Part shown: piece by piece, positions 3 to 21,130 of the stretch | Layout: each line of letters opens with the position of its first letter | How positions within the stretch are numbered: position 1 is the first letter of the stretch | Assembly (NCBI GenBank): GCA_021778295.1 | Contig: JAJYCP010000004.1 | Coordinates: 1-37,703, forward strand | Reading direction: 5' to 3' | DNA from: a bacterium | GTDB taxonomy: Bacteria; Patescibacteriota; Minisyncoccia; Phycocordibacterales; Phycocordibacteraceae | Length of the DNA stretch: 37,703 bases | Program-made: the position numbers and the translations under genes | The notes under the pieces: generated by a model | What the model saw: the letters and a program-made list of their open reading frames with translations, nothing else | Databases searched by the model: none | Told to the model about the DNA's origin: nothing

Positions 3-407
3 GAAGGCACTGCCCTTCACATACACCAGCATCTCGATTTGCGTATCAATGGCAGTCCCGTTGCCGTTCCCGCGGGAATCGGAATAGACGAATCGGCCGG
101 GTTTATCTCGCCCGTTCACACGCACGACACCAGCGGCATCATCCATGTCGAATCGGACACCATCCGTAACTTCACGCTCGGAGAATTCTTCGACATCTGG
201 GGCGTGCGCTTTACAAAAGATTCTATCGGCGGCTATACGGCTTCCGCGACGACTACGCTCGCCGTCTATGCGAATGGTTCGCTTGTGACGGGCGATCCCC
301 GCAATCTCGTGCTTACCGAACACCAGGAAATCGTCATCGAGTATGGTACGAACAAAGAAATGCTTAAAACCGTACCCACGTCGTACACTTTCCCTCCCGG
401 TTATTAA
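3..407 (+). CDS. 5'-truncated conserved hypothetical protein with His-rich putative metal-binding motifs
   Basis: The frame is open from the window edge (EGTALHIHQHLDLRING...PVHTHDTSGIIHVES); stop TAA 405..407. Confidence 0.75.
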   Translation, partial: EGTALHIHQHLDLRINGSPVAVPAGIGIDESAGFISPVHTHDTSGIIHVESDTIRNFTLGEFFDIWGVRFTKDSIGGYTASATTTLAVYANGSLVTGDPRNLVLTEHQEIVIEYGTNKEMLKTVPTSYTFPPGY

Positions 408-620
408 AACCCACCTCAAACTCCCGCTCGGGTATGCGACAGAAAGGAGTACGCCGTCTTTTTGTGCTCTAAAAGCGGCTCGTACTCGTTCCCGTTACCA
501 CAGAGAGTACTTCCAAGTTTCTAATTCGCTTCGCTCATAAGAAACTTTAAGTCGCGCACTCCGTAAGCCTCTTTCTGCCGCATACCCCTCGCGGGGAGGC
601 GGGGGTTGAGGTGGGTTCTA
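405..620. mobile_element. Palindromic MITE/REP-like non-coding element, copy 1
   Basis: Terminal IR TAAAACCCACCTCAA / TTGAGGTGGGTTCTA; inner IR 430..446 / 571..587; core roughly 90% identical to 16351..16568; the left TA overlaps the upstream stop codon. Confidence 0.75.
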
Positions 621-2177: not shown

Positions 2178-2211
2178 ATTCAACCGTGGAAGCGCAACTC
2201 TGCCATGTCCC

Positions 2212-2820
2212 TTAGAGTCGCACGGTGCGGAGTCGAGGGAAAATCTCAATCAGCAATTCATCTCCGTTCTCGTCTTTTATTGGGCCGAAAATAATGCGCA
2301 CGAACGGTACCTTGCTGTGCGCGCAAAAGTCCGCAAGCGCCTGCCAGTTAGGCGTGTGCACTTGCGGGGCAAGATTGATCGGAAGGTAGAGGCTCAGGTA
2401 CTGCGATGGTGTATAGCCTTTCGCGAAAATCTTTCCCAATTCTTGGGTAATGGTGCTATCGAAATCCCCGTTGAACTGACGGTCGGTGATCCGCTTCATC
2501 TGAAATACGTCACCGCTGACGCTGTCACGGAGAGTGGCACTGGAGTCAGCGGCATCGATGATCACAAAATCAACATCTGTGTTATCCTTGCGGAATTTCT
2601 TAATGGCACCGTTTTTGGAGATGGACCCCGAATTCAACTGCCGAAGTCCTTCTTGGGTGACAGGAATACCGATCAAAAACGGCTTCTTGAATTCCTTTTC
2701 GTAGAGCCGTTTAATCCTCACCGCCTCCGAAAGTTCGGTATCGCGGCTATCGCGACCCATTCCAAAATTGCGGAGATAATCAGCAATTTCTTCCTCGGTG
2801 CAGTAGACGAAATTTTCCAT
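2212..2820 (-). CDS. Hypothetical protein, possible PD-(D/E)xK nuclease fold
   Basis: 202-aa ORF; helix with E (TELSEA), then DVDFVII and FQMKR (D...QxK-like spacing). Confidence 0.55.
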   Translation of the reverse strand: MENFVYCTEEEIADYLRNFGMGRDSRDTELSEAVRIKRLYEKEFKKPFLIGIPVTQEGLRQLNSGSISKNGAIKKFRKDNTDVDFVIIDAADSSATLRDSVSGDVFQMKRITDRQFNGDFDSTITQELGKIFAKGYTPSQYLSLYLPINLAPQVHTPNWQALADFCAHSKVPFVRIIFGPIKDENGDELLIEIFPRLRTVRL

Positions 2821-2886
2821 AAGATGTTTGTGGGTCGCTACGAAGTTCCGAGTTCACTGAAACATATCTATACAAAGTTGTCAATG

Positions 2887-2972
2887 CGGAGGCGGTGAGA
2901 TTCGAACTCACGATACCTTGCGGTATACCGGTTTTCGAAACCGGCGCACTAGACCAACTATGCGACGCCTCC
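2887..2972 (-). tRNA. tRNA-Ser(CGA)
   Basis: Cloverleaf with GGAGGCG/CGCCTCC acceptor stem, loop TTCGAAA, long variable arm, TTCGAAT T-loop; CCA not encoded. Confidence 0.95.
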
Positions 2973-3023
2973 TGTGCTCGCCATCCTAGCATTTCATGCT
3001 GAAAATGATAAGGTTTCGATAAC

Positions 3024-3095
3024 GGCCCTATCGTCTAACGGTTAGGACAGCGCCCTTTCACGGCGTAAATCGGGGTTCGATTCCCCGTGGGGTCA
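3024..3095 (+). tRNA. tRNA-Glu(TTC)
   Basis: GGCCCTA/TGGGGTC acceptor stem, anticodon loop CTTTCAC, GGTTCGATTCC; CCA not encoded. Confidence 0.95.
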
Positions 3096-3213
3096 CAGAG
3101 TGAAATTTCGGCAGGTGTGAACGAAGAAATGGTGCGCGCTCGGTATCGCCATTCAAATATAAGTCAACGAGCGCATCGAGCTTTCGCTCGATCTCCTTTC
3201 GATTGGTTTTCAT
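3096..3213 (-). pseudogene. Possible relic of a large serine recombinase reading into tRNA-Glu
   Basis: Peptide KEIERKLDALVDLYLNGDTER resembles the coiled-coil segment of large serine integrases; the frame continues antisense through the tRNA (VTPRGIEPRFTP*). Confidence 0.45.
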
Positions 3214-3241
3214 CCGTTCGACGGATAGTATACTTGGCGAG

Positions 3242-5617
3242 ATGACCCAGGAGGAGCAGTCGCGAACAGGGCCTACCAATACTGAAGTACTTGCTTCGTC
3301 TGTTGGATTACAAAGTGATTCGATTGAACGGCTTCGTGCACAATATGGATATAATGAAGTCCCCGCGCATCGCGAGAATCTGGTGCTCTTGTATCTGAAG
3401 AACTTTTGGGGACCGTTGCCATGGGTCCTGGAAGTTACCATATTCATCACCTTTTTTATCGGGAAACAAGCAGAGGCCATTGCCATCATAGTTCTGTTCT
3501 TTATCAATGCGGGGATTAATATCTACCAACACCAATCAGCCGACGCAGCGCTCGAGCTACTACGAAAGAAGATCCAGATGTTCGCACGCGCGAAACGTGA
3601 TAACACGTGGGTAACATTGCCGGTACGAGAACTCTTGCCGGGAGACGTCGTCCATCTTCAGATGGGAGATATTGTGCCTGCAGACCTCATTATCAAAGAA
3701 GGGTCACTGAGTGTTGACTTCTCAATGCTTACAGGCGAATCGCTTCCCAAGGAGGTTGGGGCCGGCGAGGAGATCTTTTCAGGGGGAATCATCCGACGCG
3801 GCGAAACGGCTGCGCTCGTCGAGCGAATAGGTGCCAATACTCGTTTTGGCAAAACGACAGAGCTGCTTGAGACCTCGCATGCGCCAACACATATAGAACG
3901 CGTTATTTTCTCTGTTATAGAGTATTTCTTTTTCTTGAATATCGGGCTTATTGCGATCATAGCGACTTTCGGAATCTGGGCGCACGCGCCAAGCGGGCAA
4001 ATACTGAACTTCGTCGTCGTGCTTCTCTTAATGTCGGTCCCTGTCGCCTTTCCCGTGATGTTCGCGGTCGCGCAGAGTTATGGGGCACTGCAGCTGGGAG
4101 AGAGGGGTAGAGTAAAAGTCCTGGTCCGGCGGCTAGCTGCGGTACAGGACGGAGCGATGATGGACGTGTTGTGCAGTGATAAAACCGGAACGCTTACGAC
4201 AAATCACCTGAGTATAAACGAAGTGACTCGGTACGGGGCGGCAGACCAGACAAGAGTGCTCACGCTTGCCGGAATCTGTAGTGATAAGGCTGATAACAGC
4301 ACCATCGATGATGCGATTTTTGAGCGCATAGCGAGAGAAAATATAACACTTCCTGCGCGGGAGCATTTCGAGCCGTTCGATTCGATCTCAAAACGGACCC
4401 GAGCAGAGTTTATAGGAGAACATGGAGAGCTCGAAAAGATCAGCATGGGGTTGCCTGAGGCATTGCTTTCAAACGATGTCGCATACGCACCTGAAGCCCT
4501 ACAGGATGAAGAACGCTTTGCAGCAAAAGGGTTTCGCGTCCTCGCCCTCGTTTCTGAAGGGACGGCAGGAAAACGATGCGAGGGGTTGATCGCGCTGTCG
4601 GATCCGGTACGACCGGATGCGGCCCAACTTATACGAGACCTTCTTGCTGCCGGGATAAGGACCATCATGATCACGGGTGACGGACGAAGAACCGCACGGA
4701 CCGTTGCCGCTGAATTGGGTCTTACCGGAGATGTGTGTACGCCGAAAGACCTGCACCTCGATCCGAGTATTGCCTTGCGGGCGAGCGTCTTTGCGGAAGC
4801 ATATCCGGAAGACAAGATCTCCATCATTAAAGCGCTACAGAAAGCAGGTCATGTCGTTGGCATGACGGGCGACGGAGTCAACGACGCGCCCGCGCTTCAA
4901 CAAGCAGAAAATGGTATTGCGGTTGAGAGTGCAGTCGATGTGGCTAAGCAGTCAGCGAGTTTCATTCTTACTACCCCGGGGTTGGAAGGAATACTGCAGA
5001 TGGTGATAGTGAGTCGAGAAGTGTACTTCCGCTTGCGCACGTGGACACTGAATAAAATCGTAAAATCCATTGAAGTCATTATCTTCACTACCGGCATATT
5101 TTTTATAACTCGTTCGTATATACTCTCGCCTCTTTTTGCAGTGTTGTTGCTCTTTGCTAATGATTTCATTTCCATCTCCCTCGCGACGGATCGGACGGGA
5201 GTCATCGCTCGGCCCGTGCACTGGAATGTTGGGAGACTTATCCTGGGCTCAAGCATATTCGCGATGGCCCCGCTTCTGAGTCTGGTGCTCATCTACAGCA
5301 CCGTCCATCTCTTTACCGGGTATTCATTTAGTACATTACGAACCGTGACCTATGTTTCCCTTGTCTTCTATGGGATAACGACGTTACTGGCAATCAGAGC
5401 ATGGCCGAGCGGGTTTAGTGTGCGTCCAAGCAAAACACTCCTCTTAGCTATCCTTTTCTCGTTCGTATTTACCTCCACCATAGCGCTGTCAGGCTTCCTC
5501 ATTACCCCCTTGTCCTGGCCGGTTATGATGCTGATCATCGGAACGGCAATCCTGAACTTCTTTATCATTGAGCTCATAAAGCGATTCGTCGTGGTACGCA
5601 AACTCATCGGCATATAG
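3242..5617 (+). CDS. P-type ATPase, probably type IIIA (plasma-membrane H+-exporting)
   Basis: TGES, DKTGTLT, MITGD and GDGVNDAPAL motifs; SVPVAFP in TM4 and LLFANDF...LATD in TM6 resemble P3A pumps. Confidence 0.9.
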   Translation: MTQEEQSRTGPTNTEVLASSVGLQSDSIERLRAQYGYNEVPAHRENLVLLYLKNFWGPLPWVLEVTIFITFFIGKQAEAIAIIVLFFINAGINIYQHQSADAALELLRKKIQMFARAKRDNTWVTLPVRELLPGDVVHLQMGDIVPADLIIKEGSLSVDFSMLTGESLPKEVGAGEEIFSGGIIRRGETAALVERIGANTRFGKTTELLETSHAPTHIERVIFSVIEYFFFLNIGLIAIIATFGIWAHAPSGQILNFVVVLLLMSVPVAFPVMFAVAQSYGALQLGERGRVKVLVRRLAAVQDGAMMDVLCSDKTGTLTTNHLSINEVTRYGAADQTRVLTLAGICSDKADNSTIDDAIFERIARENITLPAREHFEPFDSISKRTRAEFIGEHGELEKISMGLPEALLSNDVAYAPEALQDEERFAAKGFRVLALVSEGTAGKRCEGLIALSDPVRPDAAQLIRDLLAAGIRTIMITGDGRRTARTVAAELGLTGDVCTPKDLHLDPSIALRASVFAEAYPEDKISIIKALQKAGHVVGMTGDGVNDAPALQQAENGIAVESAVDVAKQSASFILTTPGLEGILQMVIVSREVYFRLRTWTLNKIVKSIEVIIFTTGIFFITRSYILSPLFAVLLLFANDFISISLATDRTGVIARPVHWNVGRLILGSSIFAMAPLLSLVLIYSTVHLFTGYSFSTLRTVTYVSLVFYGITTLLAIRAWPSGFSVRPSKTLLLAILFSFVFTSTIALSGFLITPLSWPVMMLIIGTAILNFFIIELIKRFVVVRKLIGI

Positions 5618-5659
5618 GTTTGATTTGAGACGATAGCGGCGTGCCTATGTTAGCATCCT

Positions 5660-7075
5660 ATGATGCAGACCTTGTTCGCGATAGTTCTGAGTGGCTCTCT
5701 CGCCACCTTTTCTTTTTTCGGCCATTCACTCCAGCCGATTATTACTTTTGTGGACGAACACTTGCCATCGTCATTTGGGGATGGCATGGGTGGAAACGAT
5801 GAGAATGCACCCGTGCCAGCGGCCACTTCAACAACACCCGCCGAAACGCAGCAGCAGCCGCAGAACATGACGGCGCTCGGCAGGTACAACGTACTCATTG
5901 CCGATCGGGGAAACAATCGAGTCATTGAAGTGACGCCTGACAAGAGAATAGTGTGGGAATACAACTTTGCACATCTGAAAAAAGGTTTTGGCGCCGACGA
6001 TGCATTCTTTGCCGACAACGGGAATACCGTCATGATGAGCCTTGAAAATTACAATCTCATCGAACAGGTCGACTATGCGACCCAAAAGATAGAGTGGCAG
6101 TACGGCACTCCGGGCGTCGCGGGGTTTCGCGCCGGACGTCTCCATACTCCCGATGATGCCTACAAGTTAGCGAATGGGGATGTTGTTGTGGCGGATATAC
6201 AGAATTGCCGCGTCATTGAGATTTCTCCGGAAGGAAAGATTGTCCGGCAATACGGGGTTACCAGACGTTGCGGGACCGCTCCCGGACTTCTCGATTCCCC
6301 CAATGGCGACACGCCGCTTCCAAATGGCGGCCTGCTCATAAGCGAAATCAAACCGCACGATATTGTCGAACTTAATAAAAACTGGAAGGAAATCGCGAGG
6401 TATCCCCTTCCAATCACCTACCCCTCCGATCCGCAACCGATGCAAAACGGCGATATTCTTGTTGCCAACTACCGCAACCCGGGTGCGCTCATCGAACTAA
6501 ATCCGTCGACGGGGAAAGTCGTGTGGCAATTTTCATATACAAGCGGCGACCGGCGCCTCAACAGACCGTCGCTCGCCATCGAAATGCCAAACGGCATCAT
6601 CCTTTGCAATGATGACTTGAATCACCGCGTCATCGCCATCGATAAAAATACGAACCAGATTGTCTGGCAGTACGGGGTAACCGGCAAACCCGGAGATGGT
6701 CCCGGTCAATTGAACATTCCCGACGGGATTTCCATAATCATGCGTGCGCCAAAAACAACATCAACGCCGCAGTCTTTGCACATGCCGGTATACACCATCG
6801 GTTATGTCATGCGCCATGCCGCTTATTTCTCCAACACAATGGTCGAGATGCACGGGTATGTCTTGAAGGATAACGGAGCCTACAGCATCGTATCGGATGA
6901 AAAGAACGGGGCCGTAACTGCGGGTGACCTGCCCATCGCGAGTACCGCGCTCGAAAAGCTTGCTCCGAGGACATCCTATCTTTTCAGAGGGACATTGGTG
7001 AAAGGCGGTCTTACGGCTTCAAACAGAAATCCGTACCATCTTGAACTGGCGAATGATCCTGTTCCGTATCCTTAG
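5660..7075 (+). CDS. Exported beta-propeller protein (NHL/PQQ/arylsulfotransferase-like repeats) with a small C-terminal domain
   Basis: N-terminal hydrophobic segment; repeated LIAD.GNNRVIEV..D..IVWQY blades; the start may be ATG 5663. Confidence 0.75.
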   Translation: MMQTLFAIVLSGSLATFSFFGHSLQPIITFVDEHLPSSFGDGMGGNDENAPVPAATSTTPAETQQQPQNMTALGRYNVLIADRGNNRVIEVTPDKRIVWEYNFAHLKKGFGADDAFFADNGNTVMMSLENYNLIEQVDYATQKIEWQYGTPGVAGFRAGRLHTPDDAYKLANGDVVVADIQNCRVIEISPEGKIVRQYGVTRRCGTAPGLLDSPNGDTPLPNGGLLISEIKPHDIVELNKNWKEIARYPLPITYPSDPQPMQNGDILVANYRNPGALIELNPSTGKVVWQFSYTSGDRRLNRPSLAIEMPNGIILCNDDLNHRVIAIDKNTNQIVWQYGVTGKPGDGPGQLNIPDGISIIMRAPKTTSTPQSLHMPVYTIGYVMRHAAYFSNTMVEMHGYVLKDNGAYSIVSDEKNGAVTAGDLPIASTALEKLAPRTSYLFRGTLVKGGLTASNRNPYHLELANDPVPYP

Positions 7076-8916: not shown

Positions 8917-9780
8917 ATGCACCACCAGCAGACCGTCATCCTCTATCACGGCAAATGCCCCGACGGTTTCGGCGGTGCCTATGCGGCATGGAAGAAGTTC
9001 GGCGACGCGGCTGAATACATTCCTATGCAGTATGGCAAGCCGATTCCGGAGCACATGGCCGGCCGCGATATCTACTTCATTGATTTCTGCTATGACCGAG
9101 AACGCATGAATCAGCTCGTGTCCATTGCTAAATCAATTACCGTGCTTGACCATCACGAAGGTGTCCGGGAAGTCGCAACTGCCTTCCCGGGAGTCTTTGA
9201 CCCGAGTCGTTCCGGTGCGGCCATCGCGTGGGAATATTTTCATCCGAATGTCCCGGGGCCTTTTCTTTTTGAATACATTGAAGATTATGATCTCTATCGT
9301 TTTTCGCTCCCCGACACGAAAGCGCTGAATGCCTACCTCACGCTCGAACCGTACGAATTCGAGCGCTGGGATGAGATCGTTTCCTCTCTTGAGGATCCGG
9401 AGCGGCGAGCCAAGATTATTGAACGGGGGAGAATATACGCTGAACATACCGATGCCCTCATTCAGCACATCGCCGCAAGCGCGGATTTGGTTGAGTTCGA
9501 AGGCCACACCTGTTACCTCTCGGGTACCGTACTCCAGGCGTTCACTGACTATCTCGGACATGAGCTTGCAAGAAAACAGCCGCCCTTTGCGCTCATGGTG
9601 CGTCCGGCTGCGGATGGGTTGCGCGTTTCTCTGCGGAGCGTCGATGATTTCGACGTCGCAGTGCTTGCGCGCAAATACGGCGGTAACGGACACCCGGCTG
9701 CTGCGGCATTTCGCATACCGTGGGGCGATCCGATTCCCTGGAAGCCGGTCGAGAAAAAAGATGAAGATCCTCGCGATTGA
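8917..9780 (+). CDS. DHH/DHHA1-family phosphoesterase (nanoRNase-like)
   Basis: YHGKCPDG, IDF, LDHH and GGNGHPAAA motifs. Confidence 0.85.
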   Translation: MHHQQTVILYHGKCPDGFGGAYAAWKKFGDAAEYIPMQYGKPIPEHMAGRDIYFIDFCYDRERMNQLVSIAKSITVLDHHEGVREVATAFPGVFDPSRSGAAIAWEYFHPNVPGPFLFEYIEDYDLYRFSLPDTKALNAYLTLEPYEFERWDEIVSSLEDPERRAKIIERGRIYAEHTDALIQHIAASADLVEFEGHTCYLSGTVLQAFTDYLGHELARKQPPFALMVRPAADGLRVSLRSVDDFDVAVLARKYGGNGHPAAAAFRIPWGDPIPWKPVEKKDEDPRD

Positions 9781-14396: not shown

Positions 14397-15482
14397 TTAT
14401 TTCAATGTGATAGTTTCGAGTGTGGGTGCGGATGTTTCCTGTGTGACTATAAAAGGTAGGTAGGCGATGAGGCGTCCGTCGGCGGTCTCTATGTTGACAC
14501 GCCACTTCCCCGCCGCAGCGATAGGTACTGTAGAATACCCGCGATAACCGCCATCGCGACCGCCGACAATCGGATAAGGGATGACCGCTTTCGTCACCCA
14601 TTGTCCCGTAGCCGGGTCATACCACTGCCAACGGTGCACGATGGTGGTGGTGAGCGTCGTTGGCGCAAAAACGGCGCTATACGCGTAGAGCGACTCGCCC
14701 AGAGTAATGTGCAAGGTCGGTGGAAAGCCGAGGAAACGTACTTGCCAGGGCTCTTGCTCGTCTGCGGCGAGATATGCGCCCGGGACGCGCCATACGGCAT
14801 GATAGATGCCTCCCGCCTCCGCAGAGAGCGGAAGCGGCGGCAGGATATTGGTGAAATACGATACGTTGATAATGATGATCACGAGAAGCGCACCGATGCG
14901 GATATGCCGCACATCGGCAAGATAACGCTCACGCCCGAGGATGCGGAGCAGAATGGTGAAAAACGCAAAGAGTACGATTGCAACGGCTCCGCTCTCGAGA
15001 AAAGTCAGCGTTCCCATGGTGCCGGTGTAAATCGGCACGGAAAATATCGCATAAGAATAGAGCGCAAAGAAGAAAAGGATGGTCGTGAAGACAAGTCGGT
15101 CATGGTAGTGGTGGAAATATTCGCTACCGATAAGGAGCGCGACGAGAAGAAGCATGAAAGGCCATGATGCGGGAAGAACTGCCGAGCGGCCATAAAAGAT
15201 GAAAAAACCGCTCCAGAAACCGCCGAGTGCGAATTGCGTCGCGATGGGGAGCAGTGCGCGGGCGCGTGGGCGCGGGATACCGCGCGCCGCGCGCGCTTCA
15301 ATCCAGTGCAGAAGCGGTATGGTGAAGAAACAAACGGCAGTGTAGACGGCGAAAACCGCTTGAGTTCGCCAGAGATCGACGCGGCCGAAGAACAGGTTAT
15401 CGACGATGAAACCGGCAACCATCGCGGCGGCCGAAAGATGACGCTCGTATTTTTGCATCCATGCAAAAGACTTCTGGAACAT
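14397..15482 (-). CDS. DUF2914-domain membrane protein
   Basis: N-terminal TM helices; C-terminal AVFAP...HRWQ...GGRDGGYRGYS...GKWRV. Confidence 0.75.
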   Translation of the reverse strand: MFQKSFAWMQKYERHLSAAAMVAGFIVDNLFFGRVDLWRTQAVFAVYTAVCFFTIPLLHWIEARAARGIPRPRARALLPIATQFALGGFWSGFFIFYGRSAVLPASWPFMLLLVALLIGSEYFHHYHDRLVFTTILFFFALYSYAIFSVPIYTGTMGTLTFLESGAVAIVLFAFFTILLRILGRERYLADVRHIRIGALLVIIIINVSYFTNILPPLPLSAEAGGIYHAVWRVPGAYLAADEQEPWQVRFLGFPPTLHITLGESLYAYSAVFAPTTLTTTIVHRWQWYDPATGQWVTKAVIPYPIVGGRDGGYRGYSTVPIAAAGKWRVNIETADGRLIAYLPFIVTQETSAPTLETITLK

Positions 15483-15486
15483 GCGG

Positions 15487-15559
15487 TGCTTGGAGTCGGG
15501 CTCGAACCGACGACCCCCGCCTCTTCAGGGCGATGCTCTACCAACTGAGCTATCCAAGC
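15487..15559 (-). tRNA. tRNA-Phe(GAA)
   Basis: GCTTGGA/TCCAAGC stem, loop CTGAAGA; CCA not encoded. Confidence 0.95.
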
Positions 15560-15563
15560 GTTA

Positions 15564-15860
15564 TTAGAGGGCCGGCGACCCCGCTTTGAACGAGTTTATC
15601 AGCTTTTGGAGCTCAGCGGTAGTCGGGAGACCAAAAAGTCCGGAGGAGGTGGTGGTGCCGGGTGTTGCAGAAAATTTACTGACAATCGGCTGCAGATACT
15701 GCTGGTATAGGTAGAGCGGCAGAAGAAGCACGATGATCCAGATGATGATCTTCCCCACAAAACCGAACCATTGATCGCGTCGGATTGCGCGGAGTATGCG
15801 ATGGTTCTCTCTTGCAAGCGCATGCGTCTCTTCAAGCAGCCGTTTTAACTCCGGATCCAT
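15564..15860 (-). CDS. Small single-TM hypothetical protein
   Basis: 98 aa; coiled N-terminus (LLEETHALARENHRIL) and one TM helix; TGcTATACT just upstream. Confidence 0.7.
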   Translation of the reverse strand: MDPELKRLLEETHALARENHRILRAIRRDQWFGFVGKIIIWIIVLLLPLYLYQQYLQPIVSKFSATPGTTTSSGLFGLPTTAELQKLINSFKAGSPAL

Positions 15861-15896
15861 ACTGCTCTAGTATAGCAAGTGCTGATTGCCCATGTG

Positions 15897-15968
15897 TGCC
15901 CCCTCCAGGAGTCGAACCTGAATCAGCTCGTTAGGAGTGAGCCGTTCTATCCATTGAACTAAGGGGGC
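15897..15968 (-). tRNA. tRNA-Arg(CCT)
   Basis: GCCCCCT/AGGGGGC stem, loop CTCCTAA; CCA not encoded. Confidence 0.93.
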
Positions 15969-16029
15969 GATACGGAATGAGCGTAACACAACGCGCGCGG
16001 CAGAGCCGCGCGCGTTGTGTATTTGCACC

Positions 16030-16272
16030 TTATGCCGAAACGCCAAGCGTCGAAGCGATCCGCTCCTTATCGAAACCAATGATCATCTCGTTACCGATGA
16101 AAATGACCGGGACGCCCATTTGGCCGGACTTTTGGATCATCTCCTGGCGCTTGCCGAGATCGTGCGCAACGTCAAAATCGGTGTAGCTGATGCTCTTTTC
16201 CTTGAGAAAATCCTTGGTCATCTGGCAAAAATGACAAGTCGGCGTGCTGTAAATGGTGACGGTTTTATCCAT
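16030..16272 (-). CDS. Glutaredoxin/NrdH-like redoxin
   Basis: YSTPTCHFC (CxxC), GVPVI and IIGFD motifs. Confidence 0.9.
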   Translation of the reverse strand: MDKTVTIYSTPTCHFCQMTKDFLKEKSISYTDFDVAHDLGKRQEMIQKSGQMGVPVIFIGNEMIIGFDKERIASTLGVSA

Positions 16273-16315
16273 ATTTATTTTTATTTCGTTATGGGAGCAA
16301 GTATACCATGCAAAG

Positions 16316-16324
16316 TTATCCACA
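16316..16324 (+). promoter_or_regulatory. Consensus DnaA box TTATCCACA in the glutaredoxin promoter region
   Basis: Exact match to TTATNCACA near a minus-strand TGgTATACT extended -10. Confidence 0.4.
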
Positions 16325-16350
16325 GAAATATCTGTGCCTCTCCCCACCCC

Positions 16351-16568
16351 TAGAACCCGTCTTAAGCCCCCGCGAGGCGTATGCGGCAGAAAGGAGTACG
16401 CCGTCTTTTTCTGCTCAAAAAGCGGCTCGCGCTCGCGCCGTTACCACAGAGGGTACTTCCACGTTTCTAACTCGCTCCGCTCATAAGAAACTTTAGGTCG
16501 CGCGCTCCGTAAGCCTCTTTCTGCCGCATACGCCTCGCGGGGGAGGTGGGGGGTTTGAAATGGTTTTA
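16351..16568. mobile_element. Palindromic MITE/REP-like non-coding element, copy 2
   Basis: Perfect 27-bp inner IR 16367..16393 / 16517..16543; ends TAGAACC... / ...GGTTTTA; homologous to 405..620. Confidence 0.75.
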
Positions 16569-16580
16569 GTTGTGAACTAG

Positions 16581-16612
16581 AGCAAAACCGCCACGTATGT
16601 GGCGGTTTTGCT
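16581..16612. terminator. Intrinsic terminator hairpin
   Basis: AGCAAAACCGCCAC-GTAT-GTGGCGGTTTTGCT downstream of the 110-aa gene. Confidence 0.75.
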
Positions 16613-16648
16613 TTGCGAACTCATTTCCCTCGATGCAAACAGAGAGAT

Positions 16649-16981
16649 TTAGCGCTCCGAAGTCGAATCCGTCCCCGCCGCGTCCTGATGTCCGCTCTGG
16701 ATATCCGGTGTGCCCGGCGCCTCCGGAGCATCCTTCGGTTCACTGCTCTTTGCTTCGATCGCGTCGGATCCCGTCCCCGCGGCATCCTGATATCCGGTTT
16801 GAACATTAAGGCCGCCCGGAGCCTCAAGCGTGCTTGTTTCAACACCGGTTATTTGAGCGGGAGCACTGACGATCGGAGCGGCCGGCGTCTGCGCAAATGC
16901 CTGCGCCCCGATGGAGGCAACGCCGCCGACAGCGACTGCGCCTCCGGTAAACAGAGCGAGTGCTTTTTTAGAGATATTCAT
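16649..16981 (-). CDS. Small secreted acidic low-complexity protein with two internal repeats
   Basis: Signal peptide ending AFA-Q; repeats EAPGGLNVQTGYQDAAG and EAPGTPDIQSGHQDAAG. Confidence 0.75.
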   Translation of the reverse strand: MNISKKALALFTGGAVAVGGVASIGAQAFAQTPAAPIVSAPAQITGVETSTLEAPGGLNVQTGYQDAAGTGSDAIEAKSSEPKDAPEAPGTPDIQSGHQDAAGTDSTSER

Positions 16982-17105
16982 GTTGTTTTTATTATGGATG
17001 AATAATGTGCCTCGCGAGTGTCACTGCTTTGCGTGAGCAAATAGGTTTTGTGACTCACCTGAGCGCGAGATAGGCGGAGCGTACATGCCGTGCATGAAAT
17101 GACGG

Positions 17106-18131
17106 TTAAGAAGCGCACGGGAGCAGGATGCGAACGGTTGTTCCCTTTCCAAGGGCGCTCTCGATGTGCAACTTCCCGCCGTGCGTTTCTATCGCCTCTT
17201 TCACGATGGCGAGGCCGAGGCCGGAGCCGCTCACGAGCGCCCGCGCGCTATCGGCGCGATAAAAGGGTTCGGTGACAAACAGGAGATCTTCAGGAGCTAT
17301 TCCGCAGCCGGTATCGGTAATGTTGATTTCGAACATAGTCCCTTTTCGCCCGAGTGTTACCGAAACTTTTCCTCCCGATCCCGTATATTTAATGGCATTC
17401 TCGATGCTGTTTGCGAATGCCCGCTCCAACGCTTCTTTCGTACCGTGAACCCGTTCCTTTTCGCTGCCCACTTCAAAAAAAGAACTGAGGGAAACGTCGC
17501 GAGCGAGCGCAAGCGGCGTAAGCTTGCGCACGACTTCGGTAAGCACTGCGGTTGGCGTGACAAGCGAATCGGGATTTTTATTATTTTTGACATGCATGAT
17601 ATCAAGCAACCCGTTCGCGATGCGTGCAAGCGCATCGACTTCGTCGATATTCTTTTTCAGAAGTTCTTTCGTATCGTCAATCGTTGCGGAATGATCCCGC
17701 AATAACACTTCGCTATCGGTCTTCATGATGGTGAGCGGCGTACGTAATTCATGCGCGGCATCCGCAAGGAAACGGCGCTCGCGCGCGCGAGATTCTCTGA
17801 GAGGGCGAAGCGTGAGGCTTGTGAGGAAAAATACTGCAACGACAACGACAAGAAGCACGATGCCGTCGAGAGTAAGCAGTTGGGTTTGGAGCACGTCTGC
17901 GACCTGTTTCAGTGCAATTTGCTGGGCGGCATCCGTTGCGAAGTTCCCTTCGAGGGAATTTGCGATGCCGTTCATGAGCACTCCGTAGAGCAGGTAGCTG
18001 AATAGTCCGAGAATGACACTGGCCGTCGCCGCATAGATACCCGTGAGCGCAAGGCGCGCGGAGAAGAACTCGTCACGCTTCCAGTTTGTAGCCAATGCCG
18101 CGAATCGTTTTGATGCCGGTATGTGCGTCAT
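17106..18131 (-). CDS. Sensor histidine kinase (HisKA + HATPase_c, two TM helices)
   Basis: FLADAAHELRTPL, NAIKYT, DTGCGI, FYRAD and GSGLGLAI motifs; the start may be 18143. Confidence 0.92.
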   Translation of the reverse strand: MTHIPASKRFAALATNWKRDEFFSARLALTGIYAATASVILGLFSYLLYGVLMNGIANSLEGNFATDAAQQIALKQVADVLQTQLLTLDGIVLLVVVVAVFFLTSLTLRPLRESRARERRFLADAAHELRTPLTIMKTDSEVLLRDHSATIDDTKELLKKNIDEVDALARIANGLLDIMHVKNNKNPDSLVTPTAVLTEVVRKLTPLALARDVSLSSFFEVGSEKERVHGTKEALERAFANSIENAIKYTGSGGKVSVTLGRKGTMFEINITDTGCGIAPEDLLFVTEPFYRADSARALVSGSGLGLAIVKEAIETHGGKLHIESALGKGTTVRILLPCAS

Positions 18132-18741
18132 GTAGTTTCCCACGAAGATTTTTTATATGCACATCGACCGTATTGCTAAAGGATGAGTCGGCAAAATCCC
18201 ACGCATGCGCATAGAGCGTATCACGGGTTACCGCTTCGCCCTCATGCCGCATGAGATACTCGAGCACCATGAACTCTTTTAACGTGAGGATAAGCGGCTG
18301 GCCGTTGAGCAGAATTACATGTCCCTGGATATCCAGGGTCAGATCCCCGACGCCCAGGGTAGACAGCTGCCGGGCCGGTTCGCGACGCAAGAGCGCGCGA
18401 ATGCGCGCAATGAGTTCATCAAATGCAAATGGTTTTGCAAGATAATCATCGGCGCCTGCGTTTAATCCTTCCACGGTTTCTTCGGTCATGCCGCGTGCGG
18501 TGAGCATGAGCACCGGCAAGTAAATCCCCTCCGCCCTCCACGCGCGGCACACCGCAGTGCCGTCTTTCCCGGGAAGCATGACGTCAAGCAGTACGAGGTC
18601 ATACTCCTGCCGATTGACACTGATCCGCCGCTCGGCCTCCCTGCCGTCATATACACAGTCAACCGCGTAGCCTTCCTGTTCAAGCCCTCGTTTGAGGCTT
18701 GTGGCGAGCTTTTGATTATCTTCGACGACAAGAATTTTCAC
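18073..18741 (-). CDS. OmpR/PhoB-family response regulator
   Basis: KILVVED, LLDVMLPGKDG, GADDYLAKPF, NTVDVHIKNLR and TIRGIGY motifs; GTG 18741 or ATG 18756 start. Confidence 0.93.
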   Translation of the reverse strand: MKILVVEDNQKLATSLKRGLEQEGYAVDCVYDGREAERRISVNRQEYDLVLLDVMLPGKDGTAVCRAWRAEGIYLPVLMLTARGMTEETVEGLNAGADDYLAKPFAFDELIARIRALLRREPARQLSTLGVGDLTLDIQGHVILLNGQPLILTLKEFMVLEYLMRHEGEAVTRDTLYAHAWDFADSSFSNTVDVHIKNLRGKLHDAHTGIKTIRGIGYKLEA

Positions 18742-18763
18742 TTGGATACGGTACATCAATTGT

Positions 18764-18780
18764 ATGAAGAAGTCATGAAG
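18764..18780 (-). promoter_or_regulatory. Putative OmpR-type binding site CTTCAT-N5-CTTCAT
   Basis: Direct hexamer repeat with 11-bp period just upstream of the regulator's weak -10 (TACCGT). Confidence 0.55.
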
Positions 18781-18824
18781 TCCTTTCGTGCCACGCCCCT
18801 CGCGGGGGTTTGAGAAGGGTTCTA
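18781..18824. repeat. Solo end of the palindromic element
   Basis: The reverse complement of 18796..18824 matches 16351..16379 at 25/29 positions without gaps; similarity continues to GAAAGGA. Confidence 0.7.
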
Positions 18825-18855
18825 ATATGACGTCCTTTGCATGAGCACTAGAGGG

Positions 18856-18926
18856 TGCGGGTACCGGGAATCGAACCCGGGTCTCAACCTTGGGAAGGTC
18901 GCATTCTGCCACTAAACCATACCCGC
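18856..18926 (-). tRNA. tRNA-Gly(CCC)
   Basis: GCGGGTA/TACCCGC stem, loop TTCCCAA; discriminator A; CCA not encoded. Confidence 0.95.
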
Positions 18927-18936
18927 TCCTATTTCT

Positions 18937-19272
18937 TCAGAACCAGCTCCAGAAACGCTGCCACCAGGTCGGCGTCGCGGTCGGCGTCGCGGTCGGCGTC
19001 ACCACCACGATAACCTCTTCCCCGGGTCGCGCAACCCCGAATGCGGTTCGAATGGCCGCATCCTGTCCATGAGCTGTTTTAAGCGCGGCAAGATTCGCTT
19101 CGAGCGTCGTTTTCCGCTTTTCGAGTGCCTGATACTGCCACTGCACGTCGTGCGCTTGAGACACCGCAACTTGGGCTTTTTCGACGAGCCCCCAGATACT
19201 CGACAAAAGCCAAAAAATAACGAGTAAAAGCACCCCTATGATAATCCCTTGCCGCATTTGTCTTGCGCGCAT
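18937..19272 (-). CDS. FtsB/DivIC-like septum formation initiator
   Basis: TM helix, coiled coil, then IRTAFGVARPGEEVIVV. Confidence 0.65.
   Translation of the reverse strand: MRARQMRQGIIIGVLLLVIFWLLSSIWGLVEKAQVAVSQAHDVQWQYQALEKRKTTLEANLAALKTAHGQDAAIRTAFGVARPGEEVIVVVTPTATPTATPTWWQRFWSWF
18967..19000. repeat. 12-bp in-frame tandem repeat (GGTCGGCGTCGC, about 2.8 copies)
   Basis: Encodes TPTATPTATPT near the C-terminus of the FtsB-like protein. Confidence 0.8.
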
Positions 19273-19312
19273 GGTTTCCAGTATAACGCAGCGGACAAGA
19301 GAGCGATAACCG

Positions 19313-21130
19313 CTACCGATCGCTCTCTTGCACCATCTTCATGAAGACTTCCTCGGGAATGTTTACCTTGCCTTTGCCGCGTTCGAGCATTTTCTTTTTC
19401 CCGCGTTTCTGCTTATCGAGAAGCTTGTTTTTACGCGATACGTCCCCGCCGTAGAGATAGCCCGTGACATCCTTTCGCATCGCCGAGAGCGTTCTGGACG
19501 CTATGATGCGTCCCTGCGATCTTGCCTGGATCTTAGTCACAAAAAGCTGTTTCGGCAGGATCGCATACAGCCGCTCCACCATCTTCTCGGCTTCTTCCTG
19601 GACTCTGCGCCGCGCGACAACACGCGCAAATGCCGGTACTGGCTCCTCGGCGACGAGCACATCGAGCCGTACGACGTCTGCCGGACGTTCGCTCATGAGT
19701 TCGTACGAGAGCGATGCGTAGCCCGAAGAAATATTTTTCAACGTATCGAAAAAACCGCGCATGAGCTCCCGGAGCGGCATCTCTACCATCATTTCGATGC
19801 GTCCGTCCTGATGGGTCTCGGTCGCGAGTGTCCGCGCCTCATGCTCGTACAGCACCTGGATGAGCGCGCTCAACGCGTCCGGCGGCGTAATGATAGTGAC
19901 TTTCGCCCACGGCTCCTCGATTTTCGCGATAGTGCCATGCTCGGGAAATTTTGCAGGCGTATAGACGATCTCGCGCGCGCCGCTTGTGCTGGTGACCGTA
20001 TAGGAAATGGTCGGGATGGTAACGATGAGCGAAAGGGCGAATTCGCGCTTCAGGCGCTCGGTGATTATCTCAAGATGCAAGAGCCCGAGGAAGCCGCACC
20101 GGAATCCTCTTCCCAGCACGCCGGAAGATTCCTCCTCGAAAGAAAGCGAGGAGTCGGAAAGGCGCAGGCGCAGGAGCGATTGCCGCAGGAGCGGAAGGTC
20201 ATCCTGGCTTTCCGGGTATAGTGAGGCCCAGACGACCGGGCGCGGACGCCCATAACCGGGTAATGCCGGCAGGCTCCCTCTTGCGGCCCCGATAGTGTCG
20301 CCGACCGCGACGATGCCCGGTTCTTTGATGCCCGTCACGACATAACCGATTTCTCCTTCCGAAAGCGAGTTGGTGGAAGTTTCTTCAGGCGCAAAGATGC
20401 CTGTTTCAAGCGCGGTGAAATTTTTCCCCGCAGCGCGAAACGTAAGCGGCTGGCCCTTTCTGAAGATACCGTCAAAGACGCGCAAAAATACCGTGACGCC
20501 GCGGTGCGTCGAATAGGAAAAATCGAAAATGAGGCCTCGCGGTTCCGTGCCGGAACCGGGCGCGAAACTGCGGGGTGCCGGTATGCGGCTCACGATCGCT
20601 TCAAGGAGCTCGTCAACGCCTGCGCCTGTCTTCCCCGACACGGCACATACTTCTTCTTTCGATACGTGGAGAAGATGTGCCAGCTCGCGGACGACTTCCT
20701 CCACGCGCGCGGCGGGAGAATCGATTTTTGAGACAACCGGAATGATCGCGCATTTCTGCGCCTGTGCCGCCGCGAGCGTCGTCAGCGTTTGCGCCTGTAC
20801 GCCTTGCGTTGAATCAACAAGAAGGAGTACTCCTTCGACCGCCTTCAGGGCCCGAGAAACTTCGTAGGAAAAATCGATGTGGCCCGGAGTATCAATGAGG
20901 TTCAGGACATATTCCGTCGATCCGTCTCGGGCGCGATAGTGCATGCGCACGGGCTGCATTTTTATAGTTATGCCGCGCTCTCGCTCGAGATCCATGCGAT
21001 CGAGCACCTGATCGCGCATCAAACGCGCCGGAATAGTCCCGGTGCGCTCGAGGAGTCGGTCTGCAAGCGTCGACTTCCCGTGGTCGACGTGCGCAATGAT
21101 GGAAAAATTACGGATATGTTCTGGGTTCAC
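19313..21130 (-). CDS. lepA: Translation elongation factor 4 (LepA)
   Basis: IRNFSIIAHVDHGKSTLADR, ERERGITIK, DTPGHIDF, GFRCGFLGLLH and YGGDVSRKNKLL motifs. Confidence 0.96.
   Translation of the reverse strand: MNPEHIRNFSIIAHVDHGKSTLADRLLERTGTIPARLMRDQVLDRMDLERERGITIKMQPVRMHYRARDGSTEYVLNLIDTPGHIDFSYEVSRALKAVEGVLLLVDSTQGVQAQTLTTLAAAQAQKCAIIPVVSKIDSPAARVEEVVRELAHLLHVSKEEVCAVSGKTGAGVDELLEAIVSRIPAPRSFAPGSGTEPRGLIFDFSYSTHRGVTVFLRVFDGIFRKGQPLTFRAAGKNFTALETGIFAPEETSTNSLSEGEIGYVVTGIKEPGIVAVGDTIGAARGSLPALPGYGRPRPVVWASLYPESQDDLPLLRQSLLRLRLSDSSLSFEEESSGVLGRGFRCGFLGLLHLEIITERLKREFALSLIVTIPTISYTVTSTSGAREIVYTPAKFPEHGTIAKIEEPWAKVTIITPPDALSALIQVLYEHEARTLATETHQDGRIEMMVEMPLRELMRGFFDTLKNISSGYASLSYELMSERPADVVRLDVLVAEEPVPAFARVVARRRVQEEAEKMVERLYAILPKQLFVTKIQARSQGRIIASRTLSAMRKDVTGYLYGGDVSRKNKLLDKQKRGKKKMLERGKGKVNIPEEVFMKMVQESDR

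Follow-up and report, generated by a model that had tools for sequence, protein, structure and literature searches.

A two-component operon between two miniature inverted-repeat elements in the variable grx/tRNA-Gly spacer of a very small bacterial genome

The window analysed here is a 37,703-nucleotide stretch of DNA that forms contig 7 of 18 in a bacterial genome assembly of 495 kb (about 55% GC, 87% complete), which we call G000 and whose closest named database proteins are labelled Minisyncoccota. Its subject is a 2.47-kb segment lying between the glutaredoxin gene grx and a tRNA-Gly(ccc) gene, in which an operon encoding a two-component system is bracketed by inverted ends of one repeat family, a miniature inverted-repeat transposable element (MITE). 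An earlier note on this DNA had proposed the bracket as a candidate mobile cargo unit whose paired repeat ends enclose the operon. The locus is composed as follows, with a further MITE copy of the window given last.

16030..16272, minus strand: glutaredoxin gene, grx (Pfam Glutaredoxin, E = 9.6e-20), the conserved left neighbour of the variable spacer
16273..16350, minus strand: conserved grx upstream spacer, holding GTATACCATGCAAAGTTATCCACAG on the plus strand, which is the extended -10-like TGGTATACT on the minus strand
16351..16568, no strand assigned: MITE copy 2, long form with TA at each border (218 bp, 27-nt perfect inner arms, nested insert of ~60 nt)
16581..16613, minus strand: perfect 13-bp hairpin 3' of the secreted-protein gene, terminator-like (read from the sequence; self-complementary match at 16581-16612)
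16649..16981, minus strand: open reading frame (ORF) for a 110-aa low-complexity protein, putatively secreted, with a signal-peptide-like N-terminus recognized by eye, MNISKKALALFTGGAVAVGGVASIGAQAFAQ
17106..18131, minus strand: probable coding sequence of a small sensor histidine kinase, within ORF 17106-18143 (Pfam HisKA, E = 6.7e-12; HATPase_c, E = 1.3e-27)
18073..18741, minus strand: OmpR/PhoB-type response regulator, the first gene of the operon (Pfam Response_reg, E = 9.9e-28; Trans_reg_C, E = 5.4e-24)
18796..18824, minus strand: MITE stump, consisting of the outer terminal 29 nt with TA (nhmmer match to the profile of MITE ends, E = 2.1e-5, profile positions 1-30 only)
18854..18926, minus strand: tRNA-Gly(ccc) (ARAGORN; Rfam tRNA, 65.9 bits), the conserved right neighbour of the variable spacer
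405..620, no strand assigned: MITE copy 1, long form of the same family, whose orthologue in the sister species G116 is a short form (C14:61017-61143)

The two inverted ends that led to the earlier proposal are real, and both their positions and their sequences were found as it had described them. The left end of copy 2 (16351-16379) reads TAGAACCCGTCTTAAGCCCCCGCGAGGCG, and the reverse complement of 18796-18824 reads TAGAACCCTTCTCAAACCCCCGCGAGGGG; by our own column count 25 of the 29 positions are identical in an ungapped alignment, and the inverted-repeat listing gives 27-nt arms with 89% complementarity for the same pair. No such 29-mer match arose in 100 shuffles, which places it far beyond chance. 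The dinucleotide TA is confirmed at both borders (16351-16352 and 18823-18824), and the 3' end of the tRNA-Gly lies at 18854, 29 bp from the solo end, where a distance of about 30 bp had been given. The insertion by which copy 2's right end departs from its left end is likewise present, located between CAAACCCC and CCGCGAGG, but it is not specific to the pair: most family copies have the same insertion in one of their ends, which makes it a feature of the family. An Rfam search of 15400-19400 at E <= 1 returned three tRNAs and weak chance matches, and nothing for the MITE.

The content of the bracket also agrees with the earlier description of a regulator, a kinase, a secreted protein gene and a terminator-like hairpin, as judged from ORFs, Pfam matches and the sequence. 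All enclosed genes lie on the minus strand in this order, and the regulator and kinase genes overlap, forming one operon. All four Pfam domains of regulator and kinase score above their curated cut-offs, and the translations show the H-box AHELRTPL and the receiver stretch LVLLDVMLPG. The kinase probably starts with the ATG at 18131, giving a protein of 341 aa, since this is the length of its homologues; inspection by eye suggests two transmembrane segments joined by a loop of ~35 aa, without a HAMP domain. Its orthologue in G116 is 86% identical. With a receiver and winged-helix regulator and a HisKA and HATPase_c kinase, the pair shares the architecture of OmpR/PhoB two-component systems, and some relatives of the kinase carry the source name 'OmpR family, sensor histidine kinase CiaH'. 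In contrast to those systems, the operon is also linked to the 110-aa secreted repeat protein, for which no Pfam family was matched and which was not found beside the 34-45% identical kinase-regulator pairs present at four other loci. The operon may work as an envelope-signal module. Its base composition (53-57% GC for the cassette) is like that of the surroundings, and thus carries no foreign signature.

The gene of the 110-aa protein contains an internal direct repeat (16669-16723 and 16771-16825; 55 nt, spaced by 102 nt). Ten public sequencing runs hold the stretch or part of it, and the contigs of four of these (X1, X5, X6 and X8) were aligned to 15300-19700. Among the X6 contigs, one skips 16701-16810 and another goes back 69 nt within this gene; the number of repeats in the protein seems to vary between populations. 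The hairpin downstream of the gene was not called by a consensus terminator scan, its T-run falling short of the criterion, and the consensus promoter and terminator scan returned nothing above shuffle level. We also considered the MITE or its stump as the source of a promoter for the regulator, and rejected this, as the region upstream of the regulator that is conserved between G000 and G116 lies outside the MITE.

To place the segment in its genomic context, we compared the locus across the genus, where the order DUF2914 gene, tRNA-Phe, 98-aa gene, tRNA-Arg, grx, tRNA-Gly, DivIC-like gene and lepA is conserved throughout. The grx gene is 75-88% identical in 17 relatives and always adjoins tRNA-Arg. 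Sixteen genus genomes besides G000 and G116 are informative at the spacer, a seventeenth locus (G015) ending at a contig border. In nine of the sixteen (G011, G007, G009, G010, G023, G013, G024, G014 and G019) grx and tRNA-Gly are only 53-160 bp apart. Relatives with an empty junction, which the earlier note's view of the cassette implied, therefore exist, and the cassette is an insertion. The other seven genomes carry cargo of six further kinds in the same spacer.

G005 and G140: GDSL hydrolase
G017: IS1595-type transposase and a 170-aa ORF
G008: aspartate/ornithine carbamoyltransferase
G004: YkoP-domain protein
G114: FeeM-like synthase and an uncharacterized ORF
G016: uncharacterized ORF

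Given this varied cargo in the spacers of seven relatives, the grx/tRNA-Gly spacer is an insertion hotspot, used across the genus by at least seven different kinds of cargo. No MITE ends were found in the cargo spacers, either with the profile of ends (G114 and G140) or by eye (the other five).

Two small features of the spacer were seen in passing. In the G007 spacer (L003:1870-1978), a second tRNA-Gly-like fragment, without a 5' end and with an interruption of ~44 nt, stands beside the intact tRNA-Gly, and it may be a scar of integration or duplication at the hotspot. Upstream of grx (16300-16325), the minus strand holds the motif CTGTGGATAAC..TTTGCATGGTATACT, which includes the extended -10-like TGnTATACT; the motif recurs in all genus spacers compared and, judging by eye, may serve as a promoter.

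A hotspot beside a tRNA gene raises the question of whether a site-specific recombinase inserted the operon at the tRNA-Gly 3' end, leaving the MITEs as bystanders. The insertion abuts the tRNA 3' end, varied cargo at a single site resembles a tRNA-linked hotspot, and the interrupted tRNA-Gly-like fragment of G007 would fit as well. However, the ORFs and Pfam matches include no integrase gene, either inside the 2.5 kb or next to it, and from 16200 to 18930 there is no direct repeat besides the MITE ends, no copy of the tRNA 3' end and no att-like repeat around the cassette. We regard this route as the least probable of the explanations weighed here.

The cassette itself is rare. Among 60 genus genomes sampled first, the top match to the kinase had 38% identity; at E <= 1e-60, the kinase was found in two of 222 genus genomes and two of 259 family genomes, in each case G000 and G116, and a search of 401 order genomes at the same threshold returned G000 and one 45%-identical match, in G483. 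A large protein collection (ENA, NCBI and Logan assemblies) holds relatives of the kinase at 86-88% and 67-75% identity, and a genome-contig scan for closer relatives of the cassette returned the sister species G116 only. The cassette was absent from the viral contigs searched, and among the 259 family and 401 order genomes its single context is the grx/tRNA-Gly spacer of G000 and G116; the occurrence in other contexts that the proposal of a mobile unit had envisaged was thus not seen. The cassette is a rare accessory module in the family, confined to one two-species clade among the genomes searched.

Comparison with G116 accounts for the solo end. The corresponding locus (L029, on G116 contig C14) aligns collinearly, at 86-91% identity, along the entire window, except for two segments, 2186-5662 (discussed below) and 9095-9747, the second of which has no long alignment to G116. 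The order in G116 is grx, a long MITE (C14:47854-48068), hairpin, secreted protein, kinase, regulator, a 142-bp MITE and tRNA-Gly, and the MITE on the tRNA side is a complete short form (C14:45458-45599). In the alignment, G000 retains only the outer ~29 nt of this copy, and what comes next in G000 (GTGGCACGAAAGGACTTCATG...) aligns with G116 sequence located 17 nt past the inner end of the MITE. Because the G116 copy is complete and the G000 flank aligns outside the MITE, the solo end is the stump of a complete MITE after one deletion of ~130 bp in G000. It had been put forward as the paired end of copy 2; what the alignment shows instead is the remnant of an element still intact in the sister species. 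A contig of X5, from a second study, spans 18086-18882 with zero differences, and the stump is therefore a state of the population. Decay to one end recurs in this genome, as G000 has a second stump (C14:17618-17655) where the counterpart in G116 is complete.

On this basis we consider it probable that the segment is an accessory operon at an insertion hotspot, flanked by two IS5-type MITEs that inserted independently and one of which decayed to a stump in G000. The 2.47-kb stretch would be a lineage-specific operon that entered the grx/tRNA-Gly(ccc) spacer in the common ancestor of G000 and G116. Independently of this, two MITEs derived from the IS5 family of insertion sequences (IS) would have inserted at TA dinucleotides to the left and right of the operon, in non-coding DNA. 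Later, in G000, the ~130-bp deletion would have taken away the interior and the inner end of the tRNA-side copy together with 17 nt of flanking sequence, leaving the 29-nt solo end. The operon may have preceded the MITEs or followed them, and it would have arrived by recombination or by another integration route at the hotspot.

The repeat family was surveyed with an nhmmer profile built from 35 ends. Its copies measure 106-219 bp, carry the terminal repeat TAGAACCCATYTCAAACCCC on both sides and contain no ORF, and copy 2 folds into a long hairpin (-56.8 kcal/mol, z = -6.0). The family occupies 27 loci in G000 and 45 in G116, its dispersed copies being 85-95% identical. In G000 about 20 of the loci are complete copies and several are truncated where a contig ends, the rest being two or three isolated ends, at C7:18824, at C18:8943 (directly beside a full copy) and, weakly, at C14:17619. 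The G116 sites orthologous to G000 loci are occupied in 19 of 19 testable cases (21 listed). In the reverse direction, 35 of the 45 G116 loci could be tested in G000: in seven the flanks lie no more than 16 bp apart, in one they are 43 bp apart, two are stumps, and four face unrelated G000 sequence of 0.3-1.9 kb. Three clean pairs, filled in G116 and empty in G000, have one TA in the empty site and a dinucleotide on each side of the element when filled, which identifies the family as a TA-duplicating MITE. After the two species diverged, copies either were gained by insertion in the G116 lineage or underwent precise loss in G000. With a host genome of ~0.5-0.6 Mb, 45 loci of this size amount to an estimated ~1% of the DNA, and a very small genome thus carries a MITE load that has changed between sister species by insertion or precise loss. 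Among the 222 genus genomes, nine matched the family at E <= 1e-4; near-full-length copies occur only in G000, G116, G114 and G140 (76-80%), and the five further genomes have partial internal matches.

Three observations on individual copies may be recorded here. The long form is the short form plus a nested palindromic insert of ~60 nt (TTACCACAG...TGTGGT; window 16436-16500 in copy 2), which also occurs alone in G000 (C2:5915-5986, C16:34809-34884 and C5:40553-40655) and has matches in other genus genomes. At four or more orthologous loci the form is long in G000 and short in G116, and the orthologue of copy 2 is the only one that is long in G116; the insert may represent another very small element that prefers a particular site, or the pattern could stem from exchange between copies. 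A MITE at G114:C37:9930-10088 is 85-92% identical to G000 and G116 copies, although the core genes of G114 at the grx/tRNA-Gly locus are only 69-78% identical; this points to either interspecies transfer or an error in binning the contig, the G114 assembly having 75% completeness and 3% contamination.

The origin of the family was approached through its ends. A scan of metagenome contigs for the 21-nt terminus returned 51 loci, several of which carry an 835-bp element, for instance at L087:679-1513, bounded by TAGAACCCATCTCAAAACCCC. This element encodes OrfA (DUF4096, E = 2e-27) and an overlapping OrfB (DDE_Tnp_1, E = 7.9e-20), the layout of a small IS5-family IS; in such elements a DUF4096 OrfA and a DDE_Tnp_1 OrfB are joined by a frameshift. 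The outer 21 nt of the MITE are identical to the termini of the 835-bp IS, and beyond the outer ~20-29 nt the terminus-bearing metagenome loci are unlike the MITE profile, their interior being unrelated. The 835-bp element is, by its ends, the likely parent of the MITE. A presumptive assignment to a named IS5 subgroup would follow the ISfinder groupings. The genus member G130 encodes a 68%-identical transposase, its terminus being TAGAACCAGTCTCAAAAATA, and a scan of viral contigs for the terminus gave 0 matches. The transposase with matching TAGAACCC ends anticipated by the earlier note therefore exists in metagenome contigs, but neither a homologue of the IS transposase nor DDE_Tnp_1 or DDE_3 was found in G000, G116, G114 or G140.

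In its terminal inverted repeats, its size of 106-219 bp, the lack of an ORF, the long hairpin, the high copy number and the TA duplication, the family matches IS5-derived MITEs, and it shares with them a presence/absence polymorphism, here between sister species. It differs from them in that only the outer ~21 nt are common with the IS and that no autonomous copy is present in G000 or G116. Other short hairpin elements of 107-165 bp with the same 21-nt terminus and unrelated interiors were encountered in metagenome contigs, at L076:2024-2130, at L119:838-1002 and in L121, and the same transposase group seems, from these shared termini, to have spawned several MITE families.

The existence of a matching transposase bears on the strongest competing explanation, in which an IS5-family transposase acting in trans moved both MITEs together with the operon, via their outer TAGAACCC ends, into a TA of the spacer in the common ancestor. 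The architecture fits: TA borders the inverted outer ends on both sides, the cassette of G116 lies between two complete copies, and nine of 16 relatives have an empty site. The 835-bp IS, with its DUF4096 and DDE_Tnp_1 ORFs, ends in the same 21 nt, and the G130 transposase has a similar terminus. MITE-flanked, composite-like cargo is moreover a known kind of structure: a report on Acinetobacter (PMC6382973) describes class 1 integrons between two identical copies of a 439-bp MITE in a number of strains, and a 76-kb mer region between two copies of MITE-297. The layout is the same here, with two family copies in inverted outer orientation around accessory genes. Compared with the integron flanks as described there (identical copies, several strains), the present flanks are only 85-87% alike and occur in one context and at chance frequency.

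That the bracket is not special among the copies of this family was seen when the loci were placed at random (45 loci in G116) and the intervals between neighbours on one contig were counted. In G116, seven of 32 intervals are 2.6 kb or shorter, against 7.8 +/- 2.3 in the simulation (P(>=7) = 0.70), and in G000 one of 15 is, against an expected 3.5 +/- 1.6. The placement test ignores that MITEs survive only in non-coding DNA; a correction would raise the expectation, and the test is thus conservative. Two family members 2.2 kb apart are within chance. The possibility, raised by the earlier note against itself, that bracketing is to be expected by chance is in substance what we observe, with the qualification that isolated solo ends are themselves rare (two or three in G000). 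With 27-45 copies of one MITE per genome, chance alone is expected to leave some groups of one to three genes enclosed by a pair. Furthermore, at three of the seven G116 brackets (SC12:113266/115565, SC6:7809/9272 and SC6:23847/26581) the site of the first member is empty in G000, so that brackets form by single insertions, or are lost singly. The copies flanking the cassette are one long and one short form and, at 85-87%, no more alike than random family members, other pairs reaching 88-98%. TA at both outer borders of the cassette is uninformative because every single MITE copy has it too.

No joint of 16350 to 18825, as expected from excision, is present in the contigs of X1, X5, X6 and X8, assembled contigs being a source from which rare excision forms are dropped. 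Contig depth over the MITE is inflated ~40-fold, and X6 shows a second, G116-like population. One X1 contig connects 16272 (the start of grx) to 18855 (the end of the tRNA). We rejected it as an excision product: it follows the gene borders, one side measures 30 nt and the likeness threshold was 88%, which points to the shorter spacer of a relative.

Taken with the single context, the hotspot's intake of cargo beside which no MITE ends were found, and the lack of a DDE_3, DDE_Tnp_1 or IS transposase homologue in the four genomes named above, these results make the transfer of the operon as a composite unit unlikely, as the second context, the likeness of the flanks, the excess of brackets and the end joint are all negative or uninformative. 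It keeps some weight on account of its fitting architecture, the existence of a matching transposase family and the precedent of MITE-flanked cargo. That the MITE-operon-MITE block was a working composite transposon moved in trans we hold to be slightly more doubtful again; on that reading the 29-nt stump and the intact copy might still suffice as ends. Were the composite unit true, it would mean MITE-mediated gene capture in symbiont-sized genomes of ~0.6 Mb, where the movement of accessory genes is little documented. Of the interpretation offered in the earlier note, then, the insertion, the nature of the repeats as true MITEs and the existence of a matching IS have held up, whereas the idea that the repeat family captures and moves cassettes by its paired ends is not borne out, given one context, chance-level bracketing, flanks of 85-87% and other cargo in the same spacer beside which no MITE ends were found.

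Several points nevertheless weigh against the account that we prefer, of an operon at a hotspot with independently inserted MITEs. The MITE-cargo-MITE layout with inverted outer ends suits a composite unit and was present already in the common ancestor, and no cassette-bearing genome without MITEs was seen, so that a stage with the operon in place before the MITEs cannot be demonstrated. The relatives with an empty site are only 70-78% identical in the region, which makes the exact borders of the insertion unreadable, and, G114 and G140 aside, they gave no match to the MITE family. Since the two species diverged, copies have moved or have been excised precisely, so that a source of transposase existed. 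Finally, the placement test leaves aside the coincidence that an accessory segment sits exactly between two copies.

The direct repeats formed by the right end of copy 2 and the stump, which lie around the cassette, suggest yet another route, namely that the operon came on the DNA of a related cell, dispersed MITE copies serving as patches of homology and the present flanks being products of recombination. Many dispersed copies with 85-95% identity would be available for this, and the long and short forms that differ at orthologous loci of G000 and G116 could reflect exchange. On the other hand, no chimera was recognized among the copies, arms of just 30-150 nt with ~10% divergence are ill suited to homologous recombination, and the hotspot gains cargo in genomes where the MITE family was not found. 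We judge this route improbable, more so than movement as a composite unit. Whichever way the operon arrived, the MITE family, its likely parent IS and the hotspot offer a concrete place to study the gain and loss of accessory genes in the gene-poor bacteria of this group.

The segment at 2186-5662 is a further variable part of the window. Over these 3.5 kb no long alignment with G116 was obtained, the corresponding stretch there measuring 428 bp. The segment lies around tRNA-Ser and tRNA-Glu and holds the gene of an 804-aa P-type cation ATPase and a 202-aa ORF without a family; it is another tRNA-linked variable spot. The earlier note had placed an accessory islet at the border of MITE copy 1, but this segment, the nearest one lacking in G116, is ~1.5 kb away, with genes shared with G116 between.

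A last observation concerns the assembly, in which several contigs of G000 end inside MITEs (C8:1-173, C8:33919-34045, C9:7427-7560, C11:23650-23865, C13:22573-22723 and C16:66958-67074). For individual G116 copies, the two flanks fall on different contigs of G000, joining the end of C11 with the start of C8 and the end of C8 with the end of C16, and G116 could be used to order the G000 contigs that are broken in MITEs.

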